A stretch of 64,000 nt of DNA, from the NCBI GenBank assembly GCA_038230215.1, contig JBBRNR010000001.1, forward strand, positions 428,498 through 492,497, given 5' to 3'. Shown here piece after piece: positions 2,513 to 14,113 of this stretch. This DNA is from Chthoniobacterales bacterium (GTDB taxonomy: Bacteria; Verrucomicrobiota; Verrucomicrobiia; Chthoniobacterales; DASVRZ01). The position numbers and the translations under genes were made by a program. Position 1 is the first letter of the stretch; each line of letters opens with the position of its first letter. The notes beneath the pieces are model-generated. The model saw only the letters and a program-made list of their open reading frames with translations, was not told the origin of the DNA and did not search any database.

Positions 2513-4633
2513 ATGAATAACGAATTGGATAACACCTCAAATCTGGGCGGCGACGGCCCGTCGCAAGGCGACAAACTGGCCGGTTACTATCATGCGGTTC
2601 GCGAGCGCCTCTGGATCGTATTGCTTTGCCTCGTCCTCGGTGCCATCGGCGCAGCGATCAAAGTCGCCATGACCGTGCCGAAGTTCCAGGCGAGGTCCGT
2701 GCTCTTTCTCGAGCAGGAACAAAATAAAGTCTTGAGCAACGTCAAGGACGTCCGCGAGGAGCAGATCGGCAGTCTCGACATGATCAACACCGTTGTCGAT
2801 TTGCTGGGGAGTTACACGTTTGCCGAGCGGGTCAGCAAACGCATCGAGTGGAACGATGACCAGCATCATGCCATCCAAGGCCCAGATATTCCGACCGCCG
2901 GCCAGATTCCGCAGTTGGTCGCCCCGCGTTATCGCAAGGCGACGCGTTTGATCGATATTTTTGTTACCCACACCAATCCGCAGGTTGCTACAGTTCTTGC
3001 CAATGCCTATGCGGAGGAATATATCCGGTATGTCTTTGAGAAACGCTCCGAGGCGAGTAAGAATGCCCGGCGTTATCTCATCGAGGAATCGGAGCGCCTG
3101 CGCGAGAAAATGCGCGTCTCCGAGGAAGCCTTGCAGAATTTCCGCCAGCGGGAAAATTCCCCCTCACCTGAGAAACAGCAAACTCTGCTCGAGGGGAAAG
3201 TCCAGCAATCCACCGCTCAGATCGACCAGCTCGAGGCGACCCGGTTCCAACTCGACTCTGACCTGACTATCGCCCGCGCCAATGTTGGGAAAATCGATGA
3301 ACTGCTCCGCCTGCCCAGCGTCGCTCGCGAGCCGAAAATCGCCCAGCTCAACCAAGCCATCGCCGATCAGGAGCGTGTCATGCTCCTGCTTTCACAGCGT
3401 TACCGTCCGGAGCATCCGAATTACATCGCAAATCAGACTCAGCTCAATTCCTTGATCAGCGACCGCAACACCACACTGCAAAACGTCGTTTCCCTTCTGG
3501 AAACCGGACGCGACCATCTCCAAGCGCAGCTAGACGAAATCAACAAAGACAAAAAAGCCCGTGAGTCCGATCTACTCAACGTCACTGGAAAATCTGTCGA
3601 ATACAACGACCTCAAGCGGGAGCTCGACACCGACCGGCTAATGTATGACTCCGTCCTTAACCGCATGAAGGAAATCGACATGACCACTGGCTTCACCAGC
3701 TCGCCAGTCAACATCCAGGAACGCGCCCTCGGTGCCGCCTCGCTCACGGAAAGTCCGATCAAGGTTTACGCCACAAACATCCTTCTCGGACTCGCCGCCG
3801 GCATCGCCATTGCGTTGGGACTCAATGCCTTGGACACCTCCATCCGCACCGTTGAGGCAGCCGAGGAAATGACCGGACTGAGCGTACTCTCAGCGGTTCC
3901 CATTCGCAAAAAAATATCCGCCGGGGAGGCCTCCAGCATCTTCGACACCGTCACTAATCGCCGGGGATTAATCGCCGAATCCTTCCGGTCGCTACGTGCG
4001 TCACTGGCTTTTTTGTCCGCCAATGAAGTCAAACGCACCTACATGATCACCAGCGCGGTGCCGTCCGAGGGCAAGACTTTTTGCAGTTCGAATTTCGCCA
4101 TCACCCTCTCTCAGCAAGGCCTCAAAACCCTCCTCATTGACGCTGATCTGCGCAAGCCCTCCGTCTCCAAGGTCTTTCTCAAAAAACATGTCAGCCCCGG
4201 ACTCAGCGACGTGCTGGCCCACATGGTTTCGCTGAAGGACGCCGTCATCGTCACCGAAGTGGAAAATCTCACCATTCTCACCGCAGGCAATCACGCCCCC
4301 AATCCGGCGGAACTCCTCGGCACGACACGCTTTAAGGAAATCCTCGATGAAGCCCTGCTGACCTACGACCGCGTCGTGGTGGACACCGCCCCCTGTCTCG
4401 CTGTGAGCGATGCTCAACTCATCGCGCCTTACATCGAAGTCCGCTGCCTCGTCATTCGCTCGATGTCCACCCCGAAACGCACTGTTTTACGAGCGGTCAA
4501 GACTCTCGACGAAATCAATTGCCTGCCGGACGGCATCATCCTGAACTTCCTGCCCACCCGAAGCAGCTACTACTACTCAGGCCGTTACCTCGGCTCCTAC
4601 AGCGGCAAGGGAGTTTACGGCGCGGAGACGTAA
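2513..4633 (+). CDS. polysaccharide co-polymerase / tyrosine autokinase (Wzc/GumC/EpsG family)
   Basis: N-terminal transmembrane segment plus a long coiled-coil periplasmic region. Walker A SAVPSEGKT, Walker A' LLIDADLRKP, Walker B VVVDTAP. C-terminal Tyr cluster SSYYYSGRYLGSYSGKGVYG. Confidence 0.85.
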   Translation: MNNELDNTSNLGGDGPSQGDKLAGYYHAVRERLWIVLLCLVLGAIGAAIKVAMTVPKFQARSVLFLEQEQNKVLSNVKDVREEQIGSLDMINTVVDLLGSYTFAERVSKRIEWNDDQHHAIQGPDIPTAGQIPQLVAPRYRKATRLIDIFVTHTNPQVATVLANAYAEEYIRYVFEKRSEASKNARRYLIEESERLREKMRVSEEALQNFRQRENSPSPEKQQTLLEGKVQQSTAQIDQLEATRFQLDSDLTIARANVGKIDELLRLPSVAREPKIAQLNQAIADQERVMLLLSQRYRPEHPNYIANQTQLNSLISDRNTTLQNVVSLLETGRDHLQAQLDEINKDKKARESDLLNVTGKSVEYNDLKRELDTDRLMYDSVLNRMKEIDMTTGFTSSPVNIQERALGAASLTESPIKVYATNILLGLAAGIAIALGLNALDTSIRTVEAAEEMTGLSVLSAVPIRKKISAGEASSIFDTVTNRRGLIAESFRSLRASLAFLSANEVKRTYMITSAVPSEGKTFCSSNFAITLSQQGLKTLLIDADLRKPSVSKVFLKKHVSPGLSDVLAHMVSLKDAVIVTEVENLTILTAGNHAPNPAELLGTTRFKEILDEALLTYDRVVVDTAPCLAVSDAQLIAPYIEVRCLVIRSMSTPKRTVLRAVKTLDEINCLPDGIILNFLPTRSSYYYSGRYLGSYSGKGVYGAET

Positions 4634-4674: not shown

Positions 4675-7167
4675 CTAGAACAGAGGAATCTGTTCCTTGT
4701 CCTCGCGATTTCGGCGGGTGCGCGCTCCGGTTGCAGGTCGGGCCCGACCACCGGCACTGAGTTCGGCCTGCTCCAGGTTGGCCAGAATTTCCTTGGCGCG
4801 ACGGATGATCGTCGGGGGTAATCCAGCCAGGCGAGCCACTTGGATGCCGTAGCTTTTATCGGCGCAGCCTTTTACGATCTTGCGCAGGAAAATGATCTGC
4901 TCGTTCCATTCGCGGACGGCAATGTTGTAGTTTTTCACTCCGCCTCGCCCGGATTCCAAGTCGGTCATCTCGTGGTAATGCGTCGCAAACAACGTCCGCG
5001 CGCCGATCGTGTCGTGGAGAAATTCCGCCACGCTCCACGCGATCGACAGTCCGTCGAAGGTCGAGGTGCCGCGCCCGATCTCGTCCAATATGACCAGACT
5101 CCGCACGGTGGCATTGTTGACGATGTTCGCTGTTTCGTTCATCTCGACCATGAACGTCGATTGCCCTTTCGAGAGATCGTCGTTCGCCCCGACACGGGTG
5201 AAAATCCGGTCCACCAGTCCGATTTCGGCGGACGCCGCAGGGACCCAACTTCCAATTTGCGCCACAAGCACGAGCAGCGCGACCTGTCGGATGTAAGTCG
5301 ATTTGCCCGCCATGTTCGGTCCCGTGATGATGAGTAGCCGGTTCGACTCCAAGTCGAGTAACACATCGTTTGGCACAAATTTTCCATCGACCAAATTCTG
5401 ATCCAGCACGGGGTGCCGACCATCGACGATGTGCAGGCGCCCGTCGTTCGTCAGTGTCGGGCGGCAGTAGCCGAACAACCGCGCCGTCTCCGCCAGCGAT
5501 GCCAGCGCGTCGAGCGTGGAGATCGTTGCCGCCGTGCGCTGAAGTGAGGGGAGTTCCATGAGTATCTGACTCCGCAACTCGCCAAAGAGATCGTACTCCA
5601 ACTTCTTCATCCGCTCATCCGAGCCGAGGATCTTGTTCTCCATTTCCTTCAGCTCGGGAGTGACGTAACGCTCGCCGTTGACCGTGGTCTGCTTGCGCAC
5701 GTAGTCGATGGGAATGGAACCCAAGTTCGCCTTCGTCACTTCGATGAAATACCCGAAGACCGACGTGTAGCGGATCTTCAATGACTTGATCCCCGTGCGC
5801 TCGATCTCGCGATCTTGCAGTGCGGCGATCCAGTTTTTGCCCTCCACCGACGCCACCCGCAGCTCGTCGAGCACGGGATGATAACCCTCGCGGAAAATGC
5901 CACCGTCTTTCAATGCGAGCGGCGGCTCGTCGGTGATGGAGCGGGCCAGCAGCGCGGTCAACTCCGGCAATGGCAGTAGATTTTCCTCCAACTCAAACGC
6001 CAGCCGGTCGCGGTCGCGGTCGCCGAGTTCGGGACGCATCAAGGCTACCAAATGGCTCTTTAACTCCGGGATCTGTTCCAGCGAACAGCGCAGTGCCAGC
6101 ACGTCGCGCGCATTGCCACCGCCCTGCGAAAGCCGACTGACGATCCGCTCGATGTCTCGAATATCGCGCGCTGTTTGCCGCAGTTTTTCTAATAGATAAG
6201 TTTCCTCCAATAAATCGCCGATGAACTGCTGGCGGCGGTTCAACTCCACCAAGTCGCAGATCGGTTGGAGCAGCCATTGACGCAAACGGCGCGCTCCCAT
6301 CGGAGTTACAGTCCTATCTAAAGAGGCGAGCAGCGTGTGCTTGCTGGAAGTGCGCGAGGTTACCAGCTCCAGGTTCATCTGCGTCGCCGCGTCGAGAGCG
6401 ACAATGCCGTCCGTGCGATACGATCCCAGTGTGCTGACGTGGCTCACATTCCGCCGCAGGCTGTGACGCAGATAGTGCAGAATCGCCCCCGCCGCCGACG
6501 TGCCGAGCACGAAATGCGACACGCCAAAGCCGTCGAGCGATTGTGTTTTGAAATGGTCCAGCAGCGTGAAACTAGCGTGTTCCGGGCTGAAGAGAAAATC
6601 CTCCACCGACACGACATTCACCAAGTCCGAGAAATGGTCCAGTTGCGCTTCCGCCACCAGCATTTCCGCCGGATTCACCCGCGCCAGTTCATCGAGCAGC
6701 GACGCCATCGTCACCATTTCAGTCAACCGAAACTCGCCCGTGCTCAAGTCGATCACAGCCAGCCCATAGCCTTGCGCGGAATCGTGCCAGACTGAGGCGA
6801 GATAATTGTTTTTCGCAGAATCAAGGAGATTGAAATCCGATACGGTCCCCGGAGAAATAATCTGCGTGACCTCGCGCTGGACGATCTTGCCGGGTTGCGG
6901 ATCACTCGTTTGCTCACAGATGGCGATGCGCTTCCCGGCTCTGATGAGTTTCGCGATGTAACCCTCCGCTGCATGATACGGCACTCCGCACATCGGCGTG
7001 GTGTGACGTTTCGTGAGCGCCACATTGAGGATCGCCGCGGCCTCCCGAGCATCCTCAAAAAACATTTCATAGAAATCCCCCAGCCGATAGAAGAGCAGCG
7101 TCTGCGGCGGCAGACTCGCGCGTATCTTTTGATACTGCTGCATCATGGGGGTGAGATTTTCCGACAT
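4675..7167 (-). CDS. mutS: DNA mismatch repair protein MutS
   Basis: MSENLTPMMQQYQKIRA start motif, Walker A GPNMAGKSTY, STFMVEM, DEIGRGTSTFDG. I chose the internal ATG at 7167 (MSENLTP); the 30-codon upstream extension of the track ORF is not MutS-like. The C terminus ends in QIPLF, a clamp-binding-like pentapeptide. Confidence 0.95.
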   Translation of the reverse strand: MSENLTPMMQQYQKIRASLPPQTLLFYRLGDFYEMFFEDAREAAAILNVALTKRHTTPMCGVPYHAAEGYIAKLIRAGKRIAICEQTSDPQPGKIVQREVTQIISPGTVSDFNLLDSAKNNYLASVWHDSAQGYGLAVIDLSTGEFRLTEMVTMASLLDELARVNPAEMLVAEAQLDHFSDLVNVVSVEDFLFSPEHASFTLLDHFKTQSLDGFGVSHFVLGTSAAGAILHYLRHSLRRNVSHVSTLGSYRTDGIVALDAATQMNLELVTSRTSSKHTLLASLDRTVTPMGARRLRQWLLQPICDLVELNRRQQFIGDLLEETYLLEKLRQTARDIRDIERIVSRLSQGGGNARDVLALRCSLEQIPELKSHLVALMRPELGDRDRDRLAFELEENLLPLPELTALLARSITDEPPLALKDGGIFREGYHPVLDELRVASVEGKNWIAALQDREIERTGIKSLKIRYTSVFGYFIEVTKANLGSIPIDYVRKQTTVNGERYVTPELKEMENKILGSDERMKKLEYDLFGELRSQILMELPSLQRTAATISTLDALASLAETARLFGYCRPTLTNDGRLHIVDGRHPVLDQNLVDGKFVPNDVLLDLESNRLLIITGPNMAGKSTYIRQVALLVLVAQIGSWVPAASAEIGLVDRIFTRVGANDDLSKGQSTFMVEMNETANIVNNATVRSLVILDEIGRGTSTFDGLSIAWSVAEFLHDTIGARTLFATHYHEMTDLESGRGGVKNYNIAVREWNEQIIFLRKIVKGCADKSYGIQVARLAGLPPTIIRRAKEILANLEQAELSAGGRARPATGARTRRNREDKEQIPLF

Positions 7168-7276
7168 TAACGGAGAGGCTAGGGAAATGCTGGGAAGGTT
7201 CAAGTTGCCAGCGACGCGAGCAAGGACGAATCCACCTGAATCCTCTGCAACTCGCATGGAGCGAAGCGGGTCTGGA

Positions 7277-8305
7277 CTAAAACACCGCCGCCATTGCGGC
7301 CCGCGCGGAATCCATCAGCCCGCGGCCGAGCGGAGTCAGGCGTCCGTGTTCCTCGACAACCTTCCACCCGCCTCGAAAAAACTGCGCGTTGGCCGCACTG
7401 TCCTTTTCCGCCAGTTCGGTTTGACTCGCATCGAGCACTCCAGAATCGAGCAGACGCCGCACGCAACGATACATGCGCGCCGACACATAGGTGGCATGGT
7501 AGATTCCCTCCATGGGCCGTGGATCGATCCGCAAGGGCGATTGGTAGCGCTCGTCTTCGCTGTTCAGTGTGAGCGGTTCCTCGGTTGTCATGCCGAAGAG
7601 AAGATTGTGCGCGCTTTCGTGGGCCAGCATTTGCACGAGTTCGAGCACGCCACCACCTCGTCTCGCATTGAGTAAAATGCCACCCCACATCATGAAACTC
7701 GAGGAGCCATCGAAGGTGAGGGCTGCCGGGTCCATACTGCCACTCGCGAGGGTAATCTCCCGGACGAGTTCGCTGATTTCATTCGCCAAGGCAGGGTCGC
7801 CAGCCTTCATCAGGTCAAAGGCACCCTCGATCAGGGCGCGGCATTGGACCGATTCCTCGGGCCGGGGCGGAAAAATTTGAAAATCGGACCCCGTGTCCGC
7901 GATAAAGAACCGGACATAGCGCGCCGCAGCCTCGTCGTGGCGCGGGTCCACCAGTTCCTGAATGCGCAATCCCCCGGAAAAGGAGGGCAGTGCGATGAGC
8001 TTCTGCCAGAAGCCTCGCGCCTCGGCGTATTCTTCCCTTTCGAGGGCCAGAACAATGTCGAAATAGTAACTAAAGGCCACCGGCGACACGGGCGCGGCCT
8101 CCAAACGACCCAGAAAGGGCTCAATCTCCTGCGGCAAAGTGTCGAGGACTGTCCCAGCCTGCTCCTGAATATGGCGCAGACTGTTGGCCAGCCGCGACCG
8201 CATGAGCTGATCCATCTGCCGGGCGCGCACGGCATCCGGCTCGAAGTCCCATGAGAAATTTCCGGCGGCCATTCTCCGATCCAGACCGGTTTCAGCCGTC
8301 GCCAT
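7277..8305 (-). CDS. HExxH-motif protein, resembling the HEXXH peptide-modification / aKG-HExxH hydroxylase family
   Basis: The 342-aa protein has a single HESAH motif (MLAHESAHNLLF), followed by PMEGIYHATYVSARMY. Length and motif spacing recall the TIGR04267-type HEXXH domain proteins. This is recollection, not a search. Confidence 0.55.
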   Translation of the reverse strand: MATAETGLDRRMAAGNFSWDFEPDAVRARQMDQLMRSRLANSLRHIQEQAGTVLDTLPQEIEPFLGRLEAAPVSPVAFSYYFDIVLALEREEYAEARGFWQKLIALPSFSGGLRIQELVDPRHDEAAARYVRFFIADTGSDFQIFPPRPEESVQCRALIEGAFDLMKAGDPALANEISELVREITLASGSMDPAALTFDGSSSFMMWGGILLNARRGGGVLELVQMLAHESAHNLLFGMTTEEPLTLNSEDERYQSPLRIDPRPMEGIYHATYVSARMYRCVRRLLDSGVLDASQTELAEKDSAANAQFFRGGWKVVEEHGRLTPLGRGLMDSARAAMAAVF

Positions 8306-8313
8306 GGAGGAAA

Positions 8314-8463
8314 TTAGCGAATCTTGAGTCCTTGTTTAGTCCCGATTTTCGAGCCGAGCTTCACCAGGGTTGCGGCGGTCAGGCCTTGGGCGCGATCGTC
8401 GACCACGAGGTTGAAGCCGAGAAGTTTTTTCCAGTCGAGTTGCACTTTGGTCGTTGTATTCAT
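8314..8463 (-). CDS. candidate 49-aa small ORF (possible precursor peptide) just upstream of the HExxH gene
   Basis: Not in the ORF track (under 60 aa). My translation of the minus strand from ATG 8463 to TAA 8316-8314 is MNTTTKVQLDWKKLLGFNLVVDDRAQGLTAATLVKLGSKIGTKQGLKIR. It ends 8 nt before the HExxH start codon on the same strand. No obvious Shine-Dalgarno sequence. Confidence 0.3.
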   Translation of the reverse strand: MNTTTKVQLDWKKLLGFNLVVDDRAQGLTAATLVKLGSKIGTKQGLKIR

Positions 8464-8511
8464 GGGCTCATTTTGCCAAAGCTCTGCCAGCTGTCAATCG
8501 CCAATCGACTC

Positions 8512-9606
8512 ATGGTTTACTTTCTTACGACCCAGACCGGCGCTTTCACCCTCGGAGAGGTGCGCCGGTCGAGGATTCGTCGGCAAATGCGCATCCTGGA
8601 CTACGATTCCGCCCTTCAGAAACGCCATTTCGCGCCCGGCACCTATATCTTTACCGACATCGACCGGCTGCACTACCGCCAGCGCGAGGAAGCTGCCCGA
8701 CTCTATCTGCATCTGCGAAACGAAGGCTGCCCCGTGCTCAACGACCCCGCCCTCGTCCAGACCCGCTACCCGCTCCTGCGCACCTTGCACCAGGCCGGCA
8801 TCAACCAATTCTCCGCCCAGCGTGCCTCCGAGCTCGCCGAGCCCCTGCGCTTCCCCGTCTTCATTCGCAACTGCCATGAACACGGCCGACCCTTCTCCGA
8901 TCTGCTCCACTCCCTCGGCGAAGTCCACGCCGAGATCGCCCGCATCGTACAATCCGGCTGCCCGCGCGAGCACCTCATCGTCGTCGAATACGCCGCCGAA
9001 CCCGTCCGGCCCGGCTTGTTTCTGAAATACTCCGCCTTCCGCATGGGCGGTCAGATCCTCCCCCACACTACCGTCCACGAAGGGCGTTGGCTGGTGAAAT
9101 GGGGCACCATGGGCATCGGAGTCGAGGAAGATTACCTCCAGGAACAACGCATGCTCCTCGCCCAGCCCTATGCCTTTCGCGAAATCTTGGAAAAAGTCTT
9201 CCGCCTGGCCGACATCGAGTATGGCAGGGCCGACTTCAGCCTCTACCAGGGCCAGCCGCAGATCTACGAGATCAACACCAACCCGCACGTCACCGCCCCA
9301 CGCCCGCACCCCTTCCCCACTCGGGAACGCAATCAGGACCTCATCTGGCACGCCTACCTCGATGCCGTGCTCGCGATGGACACTCCGTCCCTCCACGCCG
9401 TCGCGTCGTTTCCCGCAGCCAAAAAACCGTGGAGCCCGCCCCATCCCCTTCAGGAAAAAGCCTCCAAAATCCTGGTGAAACTCCAATTTTGGAACCACTC
9501 CGCCTGTCATTGGGCTGTAACCCGGATGAAACAGCACCAAAAAGCCCTCCAAAAGTATCGCGCCAAGAAAGCCCGCGACCGCCAGCGCCGCTCTGGTCAG
9601 CCCTGA
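8512..9606 (+). CDS. ATP-grasp domain protein
   Basis: I chose the internal ATG at 8512 (MVYFLTTQ...); the upstream part of the track ORF overlaps the divergent genes. The C-terminal ...YGRADFSLYQGQPQIYEINTNPHV matches the ATP-grasp Mg/ATP-binding E-x-N signature. The PVFIRNCHEHG...LIVVEY central-domain pattern also fits. Confidence 0.6.
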   Translation: MVYFLTTQTGAFTLGEVRRSRIRRQMRILDYDSALQKRHFAPGTYIFTDIDRLHYRQREEAARLYLHLRNEGCPVLNDPALVQTRYPLLRTLHQAGINQFSAQRASELAEPLRFPVFIRNCHEHGRPFSDLLHSLGEVHAEIARIVQSGCPREHLIVVEYAAEPVRPGLFLKYSAFRMGGQILPHTTVHEGRWLVKWGTMGIGVEEDYLQEQRMLLAQPYAFREILEKVFRLADIEYGRADFSLYQGQPQIYEINTNPHVTAPRPHPFPTRERNQDLIWHAYLDAVLAMDTPSLHAVASFPAAKKPWSPPHPLQEKASKILVKLQFWNHSACHWAVTRMKQHQKALQKYRAKKARDRQRRSGQP

Positions 9607-9692: not shown

Positions 9693-11900
9693 ATGTCCGC
9701 CACTCTTCCTCTCTTGCAACGTCTCTTTGGCAGCCTTCTCCGCACGCTCATCTATCGCGTCACCATCCAGGGTCTGGAAAACCTCCCGCGCACCGGCGGC
9801 GTGCTCCTCGTTCCCAACCACCTTACCTATGTGGACGCCGTCGTTCTGCAACTCGCCTGTCCCCGACCCGTGCGATTTCTGGTTCATCGCACCATCTACG
9901 AAATTCCCTGGCTGAACCTCGTTTTCCGCTGGATCAAAGCCATCCCCATCTCGGAAACGCAGGCCAAGGAGGCGATCCGACTCGCCTCGGAAAGACTGAC
10001 CGACGGCGAAGTCGTCTGCATTTTTCCCGAGGGCGAACTCAGCCGCAGCGGGACGTTACTCAAGCTGAAAAAAGGCTTCGAACTCATCGCCCGTCGCGCT
10101 GGCACTCCCGTGGTCCCCGTCTGGCTCGACCGGCTCTGGGACTCCATCTTTTCTTTCAAGGGCGGACACTTTTTTAAGAAAATGCCCACGCGCATTCCGT
10201 ATCCGGTGACGGTCTCCTTCGACGTCCCGATTCCGGCGCCGCAAGCCGATGTCGCCACAGTTCGCGAACGTCTGCTCGTTCTCGGCGAAGCGGCGTATCA
10301 GGCCCGCCAGGAGCTCCAGGGGCATCTCGGTCGCGCGTGCATTCGTGGCCTGAAAAAGCAGTCGAGTTCCATTGCACTCATCGACGGCACCGATCATTCG
10401 GAGTTGAGCCGGGGGATGTTGCTCGCCATCGCCATCGCCCTCAGCCGCCATCTGCGACGTCGTTTTCCCGGTCAGCGCATCGCCATCGTTTTGCCGCCCG
10501 GCAAAGGCGCGGTCATTGCCAATCTCGCCACCGTTCTCGCCGACAAAGTCCCCGTGAATCTGAACCTCACCGCCGGACGCTCCTCCCTCGAATCTGCCAT
10601 TGCCCGCGGCGACATCGATGTGGCGATTACCGCTGACCTCGTGCAGCGCCGTTTCAAAGACATTCCGTGGCCCAAACACGTTGTCCACCTCGAAGCCCTC
10701 CTGCCCCAGCTCAAGCCGCAAATCATTTTCTGGCGCATCTTCGCCACGATTCTGCCCGCCCGATTTCTCGCTTGGTGCATCGATCTCCCGCGCCGAGGCA
10801 ACCGCAAGGAAGCCGTCCTCCTCTTCACCAGTGGGAGCTCCGGCGAACCCAAAGGCGTCGCCCTCAGCCATCGCAATATCCTCGCCAACGTCGCTCAATT
10901 CAGCTCCATGCTCAGCCTTCCGCCGCGCTCCACCATCCTCGCGTCGCTCCCGTTTTTCCACAGCTTCGGCTGCACCGTCACCCTCTGGTATCCACTCATC
11001 GAAGGATTGCGCTCGGTCACGTATCCGTCGCCATTGGAAACGAACAAAAACATCGAACTCATCGAGAAACACCAAGTCACCCTCCTCTGCTCCACGCCCA
11101 CCTTTCTCCGCGGCTACATCCGCAAAGCGAAACCCGAGCAACTCCGCTCCCTCGATTTCGTCGTCACCGGCGCCGAAAAACTCCCCAACGAACTCGCCAC
11201 CGCCTTCGAGGCCGCGCTCGGCTTGCCCGTCCTCCAGGGCTACGGCCTCACCGAAACTTCTCCCGCCGTCGCCGTCAATCTGCCCGACCCAAAAGCCTCG
11301 CGTCCGAACGACACCATCCAGCCCTCCAATCGCCCGGGCAGCGTTGGAAAACTTCTCCCCGGTCAGGCCATCCGCATCACCGATCCCGATACCGACGCCC
11401 CGCGTTCGCTCCACGAAACCGGCATGCTCTGGATCAAAGGCGCGAACATTTTCTCCGGCTACCTCAATGACCCCGCCCGCACCGCCGAAGTCCTGCAAGA
11501 CCACGGCTGGTTTCGCACCGGCGACCTCGCCCGCATGGACGAAGACGGCTTCCTTTTCATCGAGGGCCGCCTCTCGCGCTTTTCGAAGATCGGCGGAGAA
11601 ATGGTCCCGCACGAAACTGTCGAAATGGCCGTCGCGGAAGCCATGCAACTCGACCCCGGTGGCGACCGCAAACTCGCCATCGGCGCCATCCCCGACGAAG
11701 CGAAAGGCGAGGCGCTCGTGCTCCTCACCACAGTCGAGTTAGATTCCACTCTGCTCCGCAAAAAACTCAGCGACGCCAGCATCCCCAATCTCTGGATCCC
11801 CAAGATTATCTCGCGAGTGGAAAAAATCCCCGTCCTCAGCACTGGCAAACTCGACCTCGCCGGAGTCAAAGAGCTGTGCGCCGCCACAGTCAGCAGATAG
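9693..11900 (+). CDS. aas: bifunctional lysophospholipid acyltransferase / acyl-ACP (AMP-dependent) synthetase, Aas-like
   Basis: Start chosen at MSATLPLLQRLF (9693). PlsC-type HX4D motif PNHLTYVDAVV and FPEGELSR. AMP-binding motifs LLFTSGSSGEPKGV, GYGLTETS, TGDLARMDEDGFLFIEGR. The upstream 200 codons of the track ORF are Pro/Arg-rich shadow sequence. Confidence 0.8.
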   Translation: MSATLPLLQRLFGSLLRTLIYRVTIQGLENLPRTGGVLLVPNHLTYVDAVVLQLACPRPVRFLVHRTIYEIPWLNLVFRWIKAIPISETQAKEAIRLASERLTDGEVVCIFPEGELSRSGTLLKLKKGFELIARRAGTPVVPVWLDRLWDSIFSFKGGHFFKKMPTRIPYPVTVSFDVPIPAPQADVATVRERLLVLGEAAYQARQELQGHLGRACIRGLKKQSSSIALIDGTDHSELSRGMLLAIAIALSRHLRRRFPGQRIAIVLPPGKGAVIANLATVLADKVPVNLNLTAGRSSLESAIARGDIDVAITADLVQRRFKDIPWPKHVVHLEALLPQLKPQIIFWRIFATILPARFLAWCIDLPRRGNRKEAVLLFTSGSSGEPKGVALSHRNILANVAQFSSMLSLPPRSTILASLPFFHSFGCTVTLWYPLIEGLRSVTYPSPLETNKNIELIEKHQVTLLCSTPTFLRGYIRKAKPEQLRSLDFVVTGAEKLPNELATAFEAALGLPVLQGYGLTETSPAVAVNLPDPKASRPNDTIQPSNRPGSVGKLLPGQAIRITDPDTDAPRSLHETGMLWIKGANIFSGYLNDPARTAEVLQDHGWFRTGDLARMDEDGFLFIEGRLSRFSKIGGEMVPHETVEMAVAEAMQLDPGGDRKLAIGAIPDEAKGEALVLLTTVELDSTLLRKKLSDASIPNLWIPKIISRVEKIPVLSTGKLDLAGVKELCAATVSR

Positions 11901-11924: not shown

Positions 11925-13136
11925 ATGAAAAATTGCATTCCCCTGGAGAAAATCTATTTCTGGCTCCGCTGGCCGCGAGGTTTTGTGGCAAGCCTGGCGA
12001 TCTATTCCGCCGTGTTTTTTTTCGTGCTGCTCGTCTGGACGTTTGGTAATGCGAGGCGCGAGGCGAAGTTTGGCCATAACAAGGACCAGGGGGAGTATGT
12101 GGCCCTGGCCAAAGACTTTAAGGACGGCCATTTTCTCACTGCCAACTTCAAGCCGCATCGACACCCGCTTTATCCGGCGTTGCTCGTGCCGGTGCTCGCG
12201 CTGGCTCCCGACAATGTCCACTGGCTGGGAGCCGTCAACGGCGTGGTGGGGTTGCTCGCCGTCGGGCTGACTTACTTTTTCGTTTTTCGGGCCGGGAAGC
12301 TGCATGGACCCGCGGCCTGCATTTCCATCCTGCTCGCGACCAACTTTTTTTTCATCAAGATGGCAGACATGGGCATCGTGACCGAGCCGACTTACATCCT
12401 CATGACTCTCTGCGCCGTGTGGTTGCTGGCCGATTATTGTTCCAAAAATAAACTCCGCCATCTCGTGGCGGGCTCTGTCTTCTTGGGTCTCGCTTTTATG
12501 ACACGACCCAATGGCATCCTGCTTTTAGTCGGATTACTAGCCACATTGTTCGTGAAATTCTGCTCGTCAGTGGCGGGCGGAATCCGGCTGCCAGCCTGCC
12601 TGCTAACATGGGTCCGGGATTCCATCGTGGCAGCTCTCGTCTTTGCTGTGGTCGCCAGCCCGCTGTTGTGGGTTAAGTCCAGGCTCTATGGGAACCCGCT
12701 GATGCAAGGCAAGATCATGCAGTATATGTGGAACGACGATTACGAGATGGCGCGCAGTAAAAAAGCGGCGCACAGCTTGTCGGAATATGTGTCCGCTCAT
12801 GGATGGGAAAGCATGGTGCGCCGGGCCGCAACAGGGCTGGCTGAAGTATTTTTTATCGTTCCGCTCGAGGAGGAGGTTCTGCCTATTTTGTATATCACTG
12901 CATTTGTTGGTGTGACGCTGGCTCTGGGGTCCATCCAAAAAAGTCGGGCATGGCCGGTGGGGCCGTTGATCTTCATTTTCTGTGTCGTCCAAATGCTGCC
13001 ACTCGCCTGGACGGCCATTTCCAATCCCACACATCGGATTCCGTATGCAGCCATCCTGCCATTCCTGTTGTTTTTTGGAGCTCACGGCCTCATCGAAATC
13101 TACAAAAGACAACTGGCCACCACTCCAGCCAGGTGA
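11925..13136 (+). CDS. polytopic membrane glycosyltransferase, GT39/ArnT-like
   Basis: The 403-aa protein has about 9-10 hydrophobic segments. An early extracytoplasmic loop with DQGEYVALAKDF resembles the acidic loop motif of ArnT/PMT-type transferases. Confidence 0.5.
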   Translation: MKNCIPLEKIYFWLRWPRGFVASLAIYSAVFFFVLLVWTFGNARREAKFGHNKDQGEYVALAKDFKDGHFLTANFKPHRHPLYPALLVPVLALAPDNVHWLGAVNGVVGLLAVGLTYFFVFRAGKLHGPAACISILLATNFFFIKMADMGIVTEPTYILMTLCAVWLLADYCSKNKLRHLVAGSVFLGLAFMTRPNGILLLVGLLATLFVKFCSSVAGGIRLPACLLTWVRDSIVAALVFAVVASPLLWVKSRLYGNPLMQGKIMQYMWNDDYEMARSKKAAHSLSEYVSAHGWESMVRRAATGLAEVFFIVPLEEEVLPILYITAFVGVTLALGSIQKSRAWPVGPLIFIFCVVQMLPLAWTAISNPTHRIPYAAILPFLLFFGAHGLIEIYKRQLATTPAR

Positions 13137-14113
13137 AATCCTCCATCGAAATCCTCCGGCTGCGTCCGAGGCACGTTTTTCGAATCAGCCGTGGGGCCAA
13201 GGCGGATGTTAGCAATGTGATCTTGAAACTTTCCCATGCGGGTTGCATCGGAATCGGGGAAGCCTCTCCCAACGCCTTTTACAACGAGACTGCGGACGAC
13301 GTCGCCAGCCGACTTACATCGCTTTCCGACTGGCTCACGGGCATCACCATTTCCAGCGCGGAAGACATCATTTCGCTCTGGCCCGCCATCTGGCAGCGCG
13401 TGCAACCATCCCGCGCCGCCGCCTGCGCCGTCGATCTCGCGCTCTGGGATTGGCTGGCGCAATCTCGGTCTGTCACGCTCTCAGAATTGCTTTGGAACGA
13501 ACCAGCGCGCCCGGTCACGAGCTGCGTCACCCTGGGACTTTCCGAGCCCGAGGAACTCGACGCCAAACTGACCGAACTCGCCGGTTTCCCGCTGATTAAA
13601 ATCAAACTCGACCGCAAAAATCCCGTCGAACTCGTCACCCAGATTCGCCAACTAACTTCCGCTCGACTCGTGGTCGATGCGAACGCCGCCTGGGACGCCG
13701 AAATGCTTTCTAACATCGCACCGCAACTCGCCTCACTCGACGTCGAATTCATCGAACAACCGCTCCCGCCCGGCGCTGATTTCACTGCCACTCGACCGCC
13801 TGTTTTCGCCGACGAAAGCTGCGTCACCCCTGAAGACGTGGACCGTCTGCCCGACGTATTTTCCGGGTTCAACATCAAGCTCGTCAAATGCGGCGGCAGC
13901 ACGCCCGCGCTCGAAATGCTGAAGCGCGGCCAACGTCGCGGACTCCGCACCATGACCGGCTGCATGTTAGAAAGCAGCGTCCTCATCGCCGCCGGCTACG
14001 CCCTCGCCCAACGCACCGACTACGCCGACCTCGACGGCGCCTGGCTGCTCCATTCGGAGCCGTTCGGGCGCGTCCGCTTCACCAATGGCATCATCACTTC
14101 CTTATTGTCTTGA
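13133..14113 (+). CDS. dipeptide epimerase (L-Ala-D/L-Glu epimerase type), enolase superfamily
   Basis: The GTG start at 13133 overlaps the upstream stop (GTGA). Motifs IGIGEASP, LIKIKLD, VVDANAAW, EFIEQPL, FADESC, NIKLVKCGG, CMLESS and DLDG match muconate-lactonizing/dipeptide epimerase subgroup catalytic positions. Confidence 0.8.
   Translation: MKSSIEILRLRPRHVFRISRGAKADVSNVILKLSHAGCIGIGEASPNAFYNETADDVASRLTSLSDWLTGITISSAEDIISLWPAIWQRVQPSRAAACAVDLALWDWLAQSRSVTLSELLWNEPARPVTSCVTLGLSEPEELDAKLTELAGFPLIKIKLDRKNPVELVTQIRQLTSARLVVDANAAWDAEMLSNIAPQLASLDVEFIEQPLPPGADFTATRPPVFADESCVTPEDVDRLPDVFSGFNIKLVKCGGSTPALEMLKRGQRRGLRTMTGCMLESSVLIAAGYALAQRTDYADLDGAWLLHSEPFGRVRFTNGIITSLLS

Follow-up and report, generated by a model that had tools for sequence, protein, structure and literature searches.

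The window analysed here is a stretch of 64,000 nucleotides from contig JBBRNR010000001.1 of a Chthoniobacterales bacterium (GenBank assembly GCA_038230215.1, contig positions 428,498 to 492,497), and the system in question is a set of three genes at window positions 7277 to 9606. The smallest of the three, on the minus strand at 8314–8463, encodes a peptide of 49 amino acids (MNTTTKVQLDWKKLLGFNLVVDDRAQGLTAATLVKLGSKIGTKQGLKIR). Eight nucleotides past its stop codon, the ATG at 8305 begins a second minus-strand gene (7277–8305), which encodes a 342-residue protein assigned below to the αKG-HExxH-type oxygenases. The third gene (8512–9606, plus strand) diverges from the peptide gene across an intergenic region of 48 nucleotides (8464–8511) and encodes a predicted ATP-grasp-fold ligase of 364 amino acids; short divergent spacers of this kind are common at related loci. 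A preliminary description of this DNA had singled out the trio as a possible ribosomal-peptide cluster flanked by mutS and aas, and the small open reading frame (ORF), the HESAH-containing protein, the ATP-grasp gene, both spacers and both flanks are all present in the sequence as described, as is the sequence of the peptide itself. The longest reading of the ATP-grasp frame opens at 8251, but every homologue aligns from the ATG at 8512 as residue 1, and this codon was therefore taken as the start.

An ORF of fewer than 60 codons is easily missed by length filters, yet here it is the centrepiece of the locus. Its conservation at syntenic loci had been set beforehand as a test. Related loci were gathered by a scan for HExxH-protein relatives in which each GTDB species was represented by one genome; it yielded 147 confirmed loci, of which 80 were kept. 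At 69 of these 80 a tblastn search with the 49-residue peptide recovered a same-strand homologue just upstream of the HExxH gene, with E-values reaching 6.5e-13 and two to three tandem copies at several loci. A regular expression for the leader motif adds six more, so that, of the 77 loci with available upstream sequence, 75 have a small ORF with the leader directly before the HExxH gene. These peptide-bearing loci span at least seven phyla (Verrucomicrobiota, Pseudomonadota, Planctomycetota, Myxococcota, Bacteroidota, Acidobacteriota and Gemmatimonadota). Strains represented among the related loci include Quisquiliibacterium transsilvanicum DSM 29781 (L022), Parvibaculum sedimenti HXT-9 (L036), Thalassovita mediterranea CECT 5383 (L066), Pseudomonas sp. 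N040 (L027) and Thioalkalivibrio sp. ALJT (L060). Among close relatives in the Chthoniobacterales and Terrimicrobiaceae, the ratio of nonsynonymous to synonymous substitution rates is 0.03–0.35 over the first 38 codons, and the peptide gene is thus under purifying selection. An independent gene caller predicts the identical 49-residue ORF on a Logan contig. At E ≤ 0.01, a profile built from 24 family members matches 1,075 protein clusters from a database of 5.8 billion sequences, and those among them that bear any name are all called ‘hypothetical’ or ‘uncharacterized’. The window peptide matches no Pfam or NCBIfam model, and five further family members match no NCBIfam model. The 49-codon ORF is a real, conserved gene.

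The members of the family share a common architecture. At the N-terminus lies a leader with the consensus [KR][IV]xLDxSKLLGF[KR][LI], represented in the window peptide by LDWKKLLGF (residues 9–17; 8413–8439, minus strand). Position by position, its residues are retained in most of the 78 peptides derived from genomes (Leu in 70, Asp in 72, Lys in 62, Leu in 73, Gly in 74 and Phe in 69), and the motif is present in 118 of about 120 peptides taken from the database. A variable linker follows and leads into tetrapeptide units of the form Φ-G-x-K, which number from 1 to 12 with a median of 3–4 in the genome-derived set; counted from each Lys, a Gly is found at position −2 in 65% of cases and a further Lys at ±4 in 52–54%. 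The 118 database peptides contain 593 units that conform to the pattern, with Φ being Ile, Leu or Val in 76% and x mostly Ala, Gly, Val or Ser. A Pro comes directly after the last unit in 41 of these 118, and the tail beyond that unit is only one or two residues long in 60. In the window peptide the core KLGSKIGTKQGLKIR (residues 35–49; 8317–8361, minus strand) holds three units, G37-S-K39, G41-T-K43 and G45-L-K47, of which G37, K39, G41, K43 and K47 are nearly invariant (alignment A3); the orthologues at L051 and L055 are richer in repeats.

Equally telling is the composition of the cores, which are nearly devoid of Cys and aromatic residues. From the first repeat to the C-terminus, 80 of the 118 database cores lack Asp and Glu altogether, and no Asp or Glu occurs anywhere after the leader in 16 of the 118 database peptides and 7 of the 78 genome-derived ones. 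Across the family only the Gly and Lys of the repeats are conserved. The preliminary description had read the Thr, Lys and Asp content of the window peptide as a pointer to graspetide-type cross-links, an argument that does not survive this comparison, as neither Thr nor Asp is conserved. A conserved leader, a core of variable length and copy number, and paralogous copies are the classic anatomy of a precursor of RiPPs, peptides that are made on the ribosome and modified after translation; the short gene, its conserved recognition sequence and its variable core stand beside modifying enzymes, as in RiPP clusters. In one protein of 115 residues (P0241, from an NCBI contig of 233 kb), two whole precursors are fused in a single ORF, in the order leader, repeats, leader, repeats.

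The 342-residue neighbor has no significant match in Pfam. The NCBIfam model TIGR04267 (TIGR04267.2, ‘aKG-HExxH-type peptide beta-hydroxylase’) matches it with E=1.4e-27 and 96.8 bits against a cutoff of 40, over model positions 2–176 of 177, which correspond to residues 160–333 (7307–7828, minus strand). Within this region is the metal-binding motif H229-E230-S231-A232-H233 (7607–7621, minus strand), in which His229, Glu230, Ser231 and His233 are invariant among 23 homologues and position 232 is Ala or Ser; a downstream block, S256-P-L-R259-x-D261-x-R263-P264 followed by G267-I-Y-H270-A271-T, is invariant in the same 23 proteins. A profile search of PDB sequences retrieved ChlH (8s5f, E=3.2e-6) together with a radical-SAM/HExxH protein (22nu/22ob), and the alignment to ChlH covers both motifs, pairing HESAH with HEHRH and the downstream block with SPWREDLRPPSGLLHAIFV. 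The AlphaFold2 model (pLDDT 87.1) is matched by Foldseek over its full length to 8S5F, the crystal structure of the HExxH domain of ChlBHExxH (E=1.8e-11, TM 0.68, 368 aligned columns), and to SjiH (22OB, E=6.4e-7); the next match has E=0.12, which leaves only these two as significant. The predicted structure thus shows the distinct zincin-like fold seen in ChlBHExxH. From the TIGR04267 score, the motifs and a modelled fold that matches ChlBHExxH and SjiH only, we assign the protein to the αKG-HExxH oxygenase family (TIGR04267 / IPR026337) and not to a family of zinc proteases, in agreement with the relationship first suggested from its HESAH motif.

The oxygenase family was defined by Morishita et al. 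(Nat Chem 2024, as cited in PMC12636437). Its characterized members β-hydroxylate His, Asp, Phe, Gln or Pro in a leader-dependent manner (PMC12636437, PMC13060819), and most of them are plain β-hydroxylases (PMC13060819); PflC and PosC also cleave the peptide backbone oxidatively (PMC12636437). Lys is not among the substrates reported for the family (PMC13060819).

For the 364-residue protein, no curated model in Pfam or NCBIfam scores above its cutoff. The best Pfam match is Dala_Dala_lig_C (E=0.097, 12.6 bits against a cutoff of 24), and the NCBIfam models for D-Ala-D-Ala ligase (Ddl) give E-values of 0.04–0.3, the best being 0.043, far under cutoff; the protein accordingly represents an ATP-grasp family that has no curated model. 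A profile of the family compared against Ddl structures reaches E=0.003 over the segment YGRADF...EINTNP, which in the window protein spans residues 237–258 (YGRADF...QIYEINTNP; 9220–9285, plus strand). Within it, Arg239, Asp241, Glu253 and Asn255 are invariant in 26 homologues and are equivalent to the Arg and Mg-binding triad of ATP-grasp enzymes, and the R-x-D...E-x-N segment aligns with GRaDF...EvNTxPG of the D-Ala-D-Ala ligases 5nrh and 4egq. The AlphaFold2 model (pLDDT 86.4) has 294 Foldseek matches in the PDB at E ≤ 0.001, and every one of the top 50 is a Ddl, RimK or LysX/ArgX protein (probability 1.0, E from 5e-10, TM 0.39–0.59). Sequence and predicted structure together identify the divergent protein as an ATP-grasp-fold ligase with intact Mg/ATP motifs. 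NCBIfam models of graspetide synthetases, such as TIGR04187, give no match to it at E ≤ 1.

The family is large. An exhaustive hidden Markov model (HMM) search of 1.84 billion representative proteins returned 2,134 members at E ≤ 0.001, 1,261 of them at E ≤ 1e-30. Longer members carry C-terminal tetratricopeptide (TPR) repeats; there is also one fusion with a GT2 glycosyltransferase and one tandemly duplicated protein. The window protein has at the same end a Lys/Arg-rich extension of about 45 residues, predicted to form a single long helix (residues ~312–364; 9445–9606), which is lineage-specific and absent from the typical 319-residue homologues. In addition, Arg119 (8866–8868), an invariant Arg in the motif FPVF[VIL]R, tentatively aligns where the ‘FVKP’ motif of Ddl has the Lys that binds the ATP phosphates.

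The linkage of ATP-grasp and HExxH genes, which the preliminary description had named as a test of its proposal, is pronounced. An ATP-grasp gene adjoins the peptide/HExxH pair in 73 of the 80 loci, and two types are involved. The short type, found at 58 loci, is the one present in the window; it is placed either divergently upstream, as here, or immediately after the HExxH gene, in many cases with a 4-nt overlap. The second type, found at 15 loci (including L022, L031, L041, L042, L054, L055, L059, L061, L062, L064, L065, L067, L074 and L079), is a protein of 620 residues that resembles the N and G domains of cyanophycin synthetase CphA1; it matches PRK14016 with E=1e-70, yet scores far under the cutoff (239 against 877 bits) and has no complete Mur-ligase-like M domain. 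Neither a CphA-like gene nor a second copy of the peptide gene occurs anywhere in the 64-kb window. Three of the 73 (L006, L009 and L015) are counted through partial ATP-grasp matches at a contig edge only, and three of the seven loci without an ATP-grasp gene (L018, L025 and L068) are cut by a contig end at the HExxH gene, L068 just upstream of it.

Profile–profile comparison of the two ATP-grasp types gives a probability of 0.7%, that is, no detectable relation beyond the fold. A neighbor-joining tree of HExxH proteins distributes the loci with the CphA-like type over at least four separate groups, so the swaps are polyphyletic. The leader may register the exchange: position +6 is Tyr or Phe rather than Leu at 10 of 13 CphA-type loci as against 7 of 51 short-type loci (Fisher p=2.5e-5, a value uncorrected for phylogeny). 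Since two unrelated ATP-grasp families alternate beside one and the same peptide/HExxH pair, ATP-grasp chemistry looks like an obligatory second step.

When the ORFs of the 80 loci and the window were clustered in search of conserved neighbors, no further widely shared family emerged beyond the HExxH proteins, the two ATP-grasp types and antisense shadow ORFs, and the flanking genes of the window are common to no other locus. The trio therefore forms an autonomous module. ABC ATPases (10 loci), UDP-glucose dehydrogenases (4), cardiolipin-synthase-like proteins (5) and rubrerythrin-VIT1 proteins (4) were considered as partners and set aside on account of variable position or local synteny. The cluster had earlier been called minimal and atypical: with three genes it is indeed minimal, but far from being atypical, the trio represents a widespread cassette in its standard form.

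Additional genes accompany the trio in subsets of loci. In six Verrucomicrobial loci a GT2 glycosyltransferase gene lies directly downstream of the ATP-grasp gene (L005:3758-4549, L007:1151-1936, L010:2065-3087, L011:3798-4646, L012:3700-4632 and L013:1914-2705). These proteins resemble a galactosyltransferase N-terminal domain, and protein P0402 is an ATP-grasp–GT2 fusion; their presence suggests that introduced hydroxyl groups are glycosylated in some lineages. At four other loci a Wzx/MOP-type transporter (Pfam Polysacc_synt_3) stands between the HExxH gene and the ATP-grasp gene (L037:6926-8458, L047:4911-6401, L051:6996-8447, which overlaps the HExxH stop by 4 nt, and L057:6998-8539) and is a candidate exporter of the product in those four lineages. 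The only two fully flanked loci that have a leader-bearing peptide and no ATP-grasp gene (L020:5741-5992 and L033:5635-5865) encode HExxH proteins that are sister taxa on the tree. Their peptides retain the leader, IELDxSRLLGFKQ, while the repeats are replaced by a PEP-CTERM-like signal composed of APEPS, a hydrophobic helix and an Arg/Lys-rich tail, which suggests an exosortase-targeted variant of the system. Together, these transporter and PEP-CTERM variants point to the exit of at least some products from the cytoplasm.

We consider it probable that the three genes form a self-contained RiPP-type cassette in which the peptide is modified by both enzymes. Three findings had been named in advance as contrary to such a reading: a small ORF that is not conserved, an HExxH protein from an unrelated metallopeptidase family, and an ATP-grasp protein that groups with primary-metabolism ligases and is unlinked to HExxH genes. 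None of them was obtained, and the RiPP-like proposal is supported. The likeliest scheme for the cassette is repeat-wise hydroxylation combined with ATP-dependent acylation. The 49-residue product would be the precursor, its N-terminal LDxxKLLGF leader docking onto the enzymes and its C-terminal Φ-G-x-K core being the part that is modified. The HExxH enzyme, as the constant partner, is the likeliest primary reader of the leader. As an Fe(II)/2-oxoglutarate oxygenase it would oxidize side-chain C–H bonds within the repeats, and family precedent favors β-hydroxylation. Lys is the prime candidate, being the only invariant residue with a side chain; as the actual site of hydroxylation it is a tentative choice, to which we give somewhat less than even weight.

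The ATP-grasp enzyme would use ATP to form an acyl-phosphate and from it a new amide or ester on the same peptide. Because most cores lack Asp and Glu, the activated carboxylate would most likely be that of a free (amino) acid or of the C-terminus of the peptide itself, and the nucleophile could be the ε-amine of Lys or a newly installed hydroxyl group. That the bond formed is an amide involving Lys is a possibility of about the same, rather modest standing as hydroxylation at that residue.

Several considerations weigh against this scheme. The repeats might be conserved for what the mature product does and not as sites of modification. In the structural relatives RimK and LysX/ArgX, as in the G domain of CphA, the enzymes act on a polymer-borne carboxylate and not on Lys amines. 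The apparent replacement of the phosphate-binding Lys by Arg at position 119 also counts here, though tentatively, because the aligned segment is not significant by itself. No protease or exporter gene is conserved across the 80 loci and none occurs in the window, as had been remarked earlier for the immediate surroundings of the trio, so that leader removal and export are left unexplained in the window and at most loci. Finally, the chemistry of the cassette is something we infer throughout, from the peptide as substrate to the site and type of oxidation, the two substrates of the ligase and the order of the steps, and the reactions of αKG-HExxH enzymes ‘at present cannot be predicted’ (PMC13060819).

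Judged by its HMM match, motifs and fold, the oxygenase belongs in one family with the RiPP enzymes ChlBH (8S5F), SjiH, BpmH, PflC/PosC and PesO. As in those systems, its gene stands beside a short precursor gene, and leader-dependent Fe/αKG oxidation may be expected by analogy. Unlike them, the cassette has as its partner enzyme an ATP-grasp protein in place of radical SAM, MNIO, nitroreductase or Asn-synthetase-like enzymes, and the precursor has neither an NHLP leader nor an Asp/His/Gln/Pro target motif but Lys/Gly repeats instead. The behavior of PflC and PosC raises the alternative that the HExxH enzyme, besides or in place of hydroxylating side chains, α-hydroxylates the backbone, for example at the invariant Gly, and so cuts the peptide into amidated fragments on which the ATP-grasp enzyme then acts. 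Oxidative cleavage, which in these two members of the family leaves a C-terminal amide (PMC12636437), would replace the missing leader protease, for which no gene is conserved in the cassette; PflC also hydrolyzes peptide without a leader (PMC12636437), and Gly is second only to Lys in conservation within the repeats. We nevertheless judge this alternative improbable: amidated ends would remove carboxylates and leave the ATP-grasp enzyme with no obvious peptide-borne substrate, the peptides lack the ARMD-type cleavage motif of PflA/PosA, and plain β-hydroxylation is the commoner activity among characterized members (PMC13060819).

The best structural matches of the ATP-grasp protein, RimK, LysX/ArgX and the D-Ala-D-Ala ligases, share its R-x-D...E-x-N signature, and RimK and LysX modify a small ribosomally made protein. 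The sequence similarity to all of these is marginal (E 0.003–0.1, under every curated cutoff), none is associated with an oxygenase, and RimK and LysX depend on an acceptor protein with an acidic C-terminus, a feature absent from the present peptides. These likenesses nonetheless allow the peptide to be pictured as a reusable carrier or scaffold, in the manner of LysW/LysX or of the pearlins, onto which the ATP-grasp enzyme loads a free amino acid that is hydroxylated while tethered and later released. The structural neighbors include LysX/ArgX complexed with LysW, the alternative ATP-grasp type resembles the cyanophycin synthetase G domain, most cassettes have no protease or exporter, and the HExxH family counts Asp among its canonical substrates (PMC12636437). 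Even so, a carrier role is less probable again than oxidative cleavage. LysW-type carriers are charged at a conserved acidic C-terminus (EDWGE), whereas the C-termini here are variable, mostly ...G-x-K-P-x or ...K-x, and mostly non-acidic, with no acidic motif; no release enzyme is conserved; a repeat number of 1 to 12 is more typical of product-encoding cores; and the transporter at four loci and the PEP-CTERM variants point to a peptide that is itself released from the cell.

Corallotide, the product of the cor cluster of Corallococcus (graspetide group 15), comes nearest as a functional precedent: a graspetide synthetase makes a Lys–Asp isopeptide bond in each of five KxxxD repeats and a canonical 2-oxoglutarate (2OG) oxygenase then hydroxylates the δ-carbon of Lys (PMC13097080). 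There, too, an ATP-grasp enzyme and an Fe/2OG oxygenase act on the repeat Lys residues of a ribosomal peptide, and the Lys of corallotide is both acylated and hydroxylated. The enzymes come from other families, however (CorB is a TIGR04187 graspetide synthetase and CorC a PF13640 2OG oxygenase); the KxxxD repeat contains an obligatory Asp acceptor that is missing here; and CorA, at ~22 kDa, belongs to a cluster confined to a single genus. That the present ATP-grasp enzyme forms intramolecular lactam or lactone rings from Lys or Thr to Asp or Glu, with the hydroxylase decorating the rings as in corallotide (PMC13097080), is very improbable: the window peptide does have Asp22, Asp23 and several Thr and Lys residues, and 102 of the 118 database peptides have at least one Asp or Glu after the leader, but the conserved donor/acceptor core of a graspetide is absent from a family in which Lys alone of these residues is conserved and most cores are free of Asp and Glu from the first repeat on, no TIGR04187-type match was found at E ≤ 1, and the top 50 structural neighbors are not of the MdnB/C type. 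The graspetide and LysW-carrier assignments were therefore both rejected, on synthetase family, donor/acceptor core and acidic C-terminus.

No description of an HExxH/ATP-grasp/Φ-G-x-K cassette was found in the literature searched, which excluded the similarity network of Morishita et al. (2024). The oxygenase adds a member to a known family, the ATP-grasp protein lies in a known superfamily as part of a family that falls under all curated cutoffs, and the precursor family is unnamed in the databases searched. None of the three proteins is matched by the PADLOC defense models, and a known anti-phage system was set aside on this ground.

As for the surroundings, mutS (4675–7257, minus strand) and an acyltransferase/AMP-binding Aas-like gene (9696–11900) flank the trio. 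A promoter-like site, TTGACA-16 nt-CAAAAT with an extended TG, occurs on the minus strand at 8470–8497, one such site against 0.8 expected in shuffled sequence; its −10 element ends 7 nt ahead of the peptide ATG, which would weakly imply a leaderless or near-leaderless transcript. Neither the peptide gene nor the HExxH gene has a Shine–Dalgarno-like sequence ahead of it; the 8-nt spacer before the latter reads TTTCCTCC. Envelope- or polysaccharide-related genes also lie around the locus (2513–4633, 11925–13136 and 12950–14113), which encode a Wzz chain-length-determinant/P-loop tyrosine-kinase-like protein, a weakly PMT_2-like membrane glycosyltransferase and an MR_MLE (dipeptide-epimerase-like) protein of the enolase superfamily. 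The association is probably coincidental, since none of these genes is common to the other 80 loci.

Carried to its fullest form, the hydroxylation–acylation scheme would define a new RiPP class. The Lys of each Φ-G-x-K repeat would be hydroxylated by the αKG-HExxH enzyme, a new substrate for that family, then acylated or aminoacylated by an unrecognized ATP-grasp family and, in some lineages, O-glycosylated by the GT2 enzyme; the result would be a polycationic product for the envelope or extracellular matrix and not a classical antibiotic, a destination hinted at by the Wzx-type transporters and the PEP-CTERM/exosortase variants. We regard this complete proposal as rather unlikely. If true, it would amount to a collagen-like ‘hydroxylysine then decorate’ logic in bacteria.

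The finding is a solid and inexpensive experimental lead, not a paradigm shift. The αKG-HExxH oxygenases were recognized only in 2024, and their reactions are still unpredictable from sequence. The alternation of two unrelated ATP-grasp families beside one peptide/HExxH pair is a clean natural experiment as to which of the pathway's steps is indispensable. With only three genes, and with representatives in at least seven phyla that include cultured strains, the cassette offers a cheap and well-defined target for co-expression that is likely to reveal new peptide chemistry, for example at Lys residues in tandem repeats.

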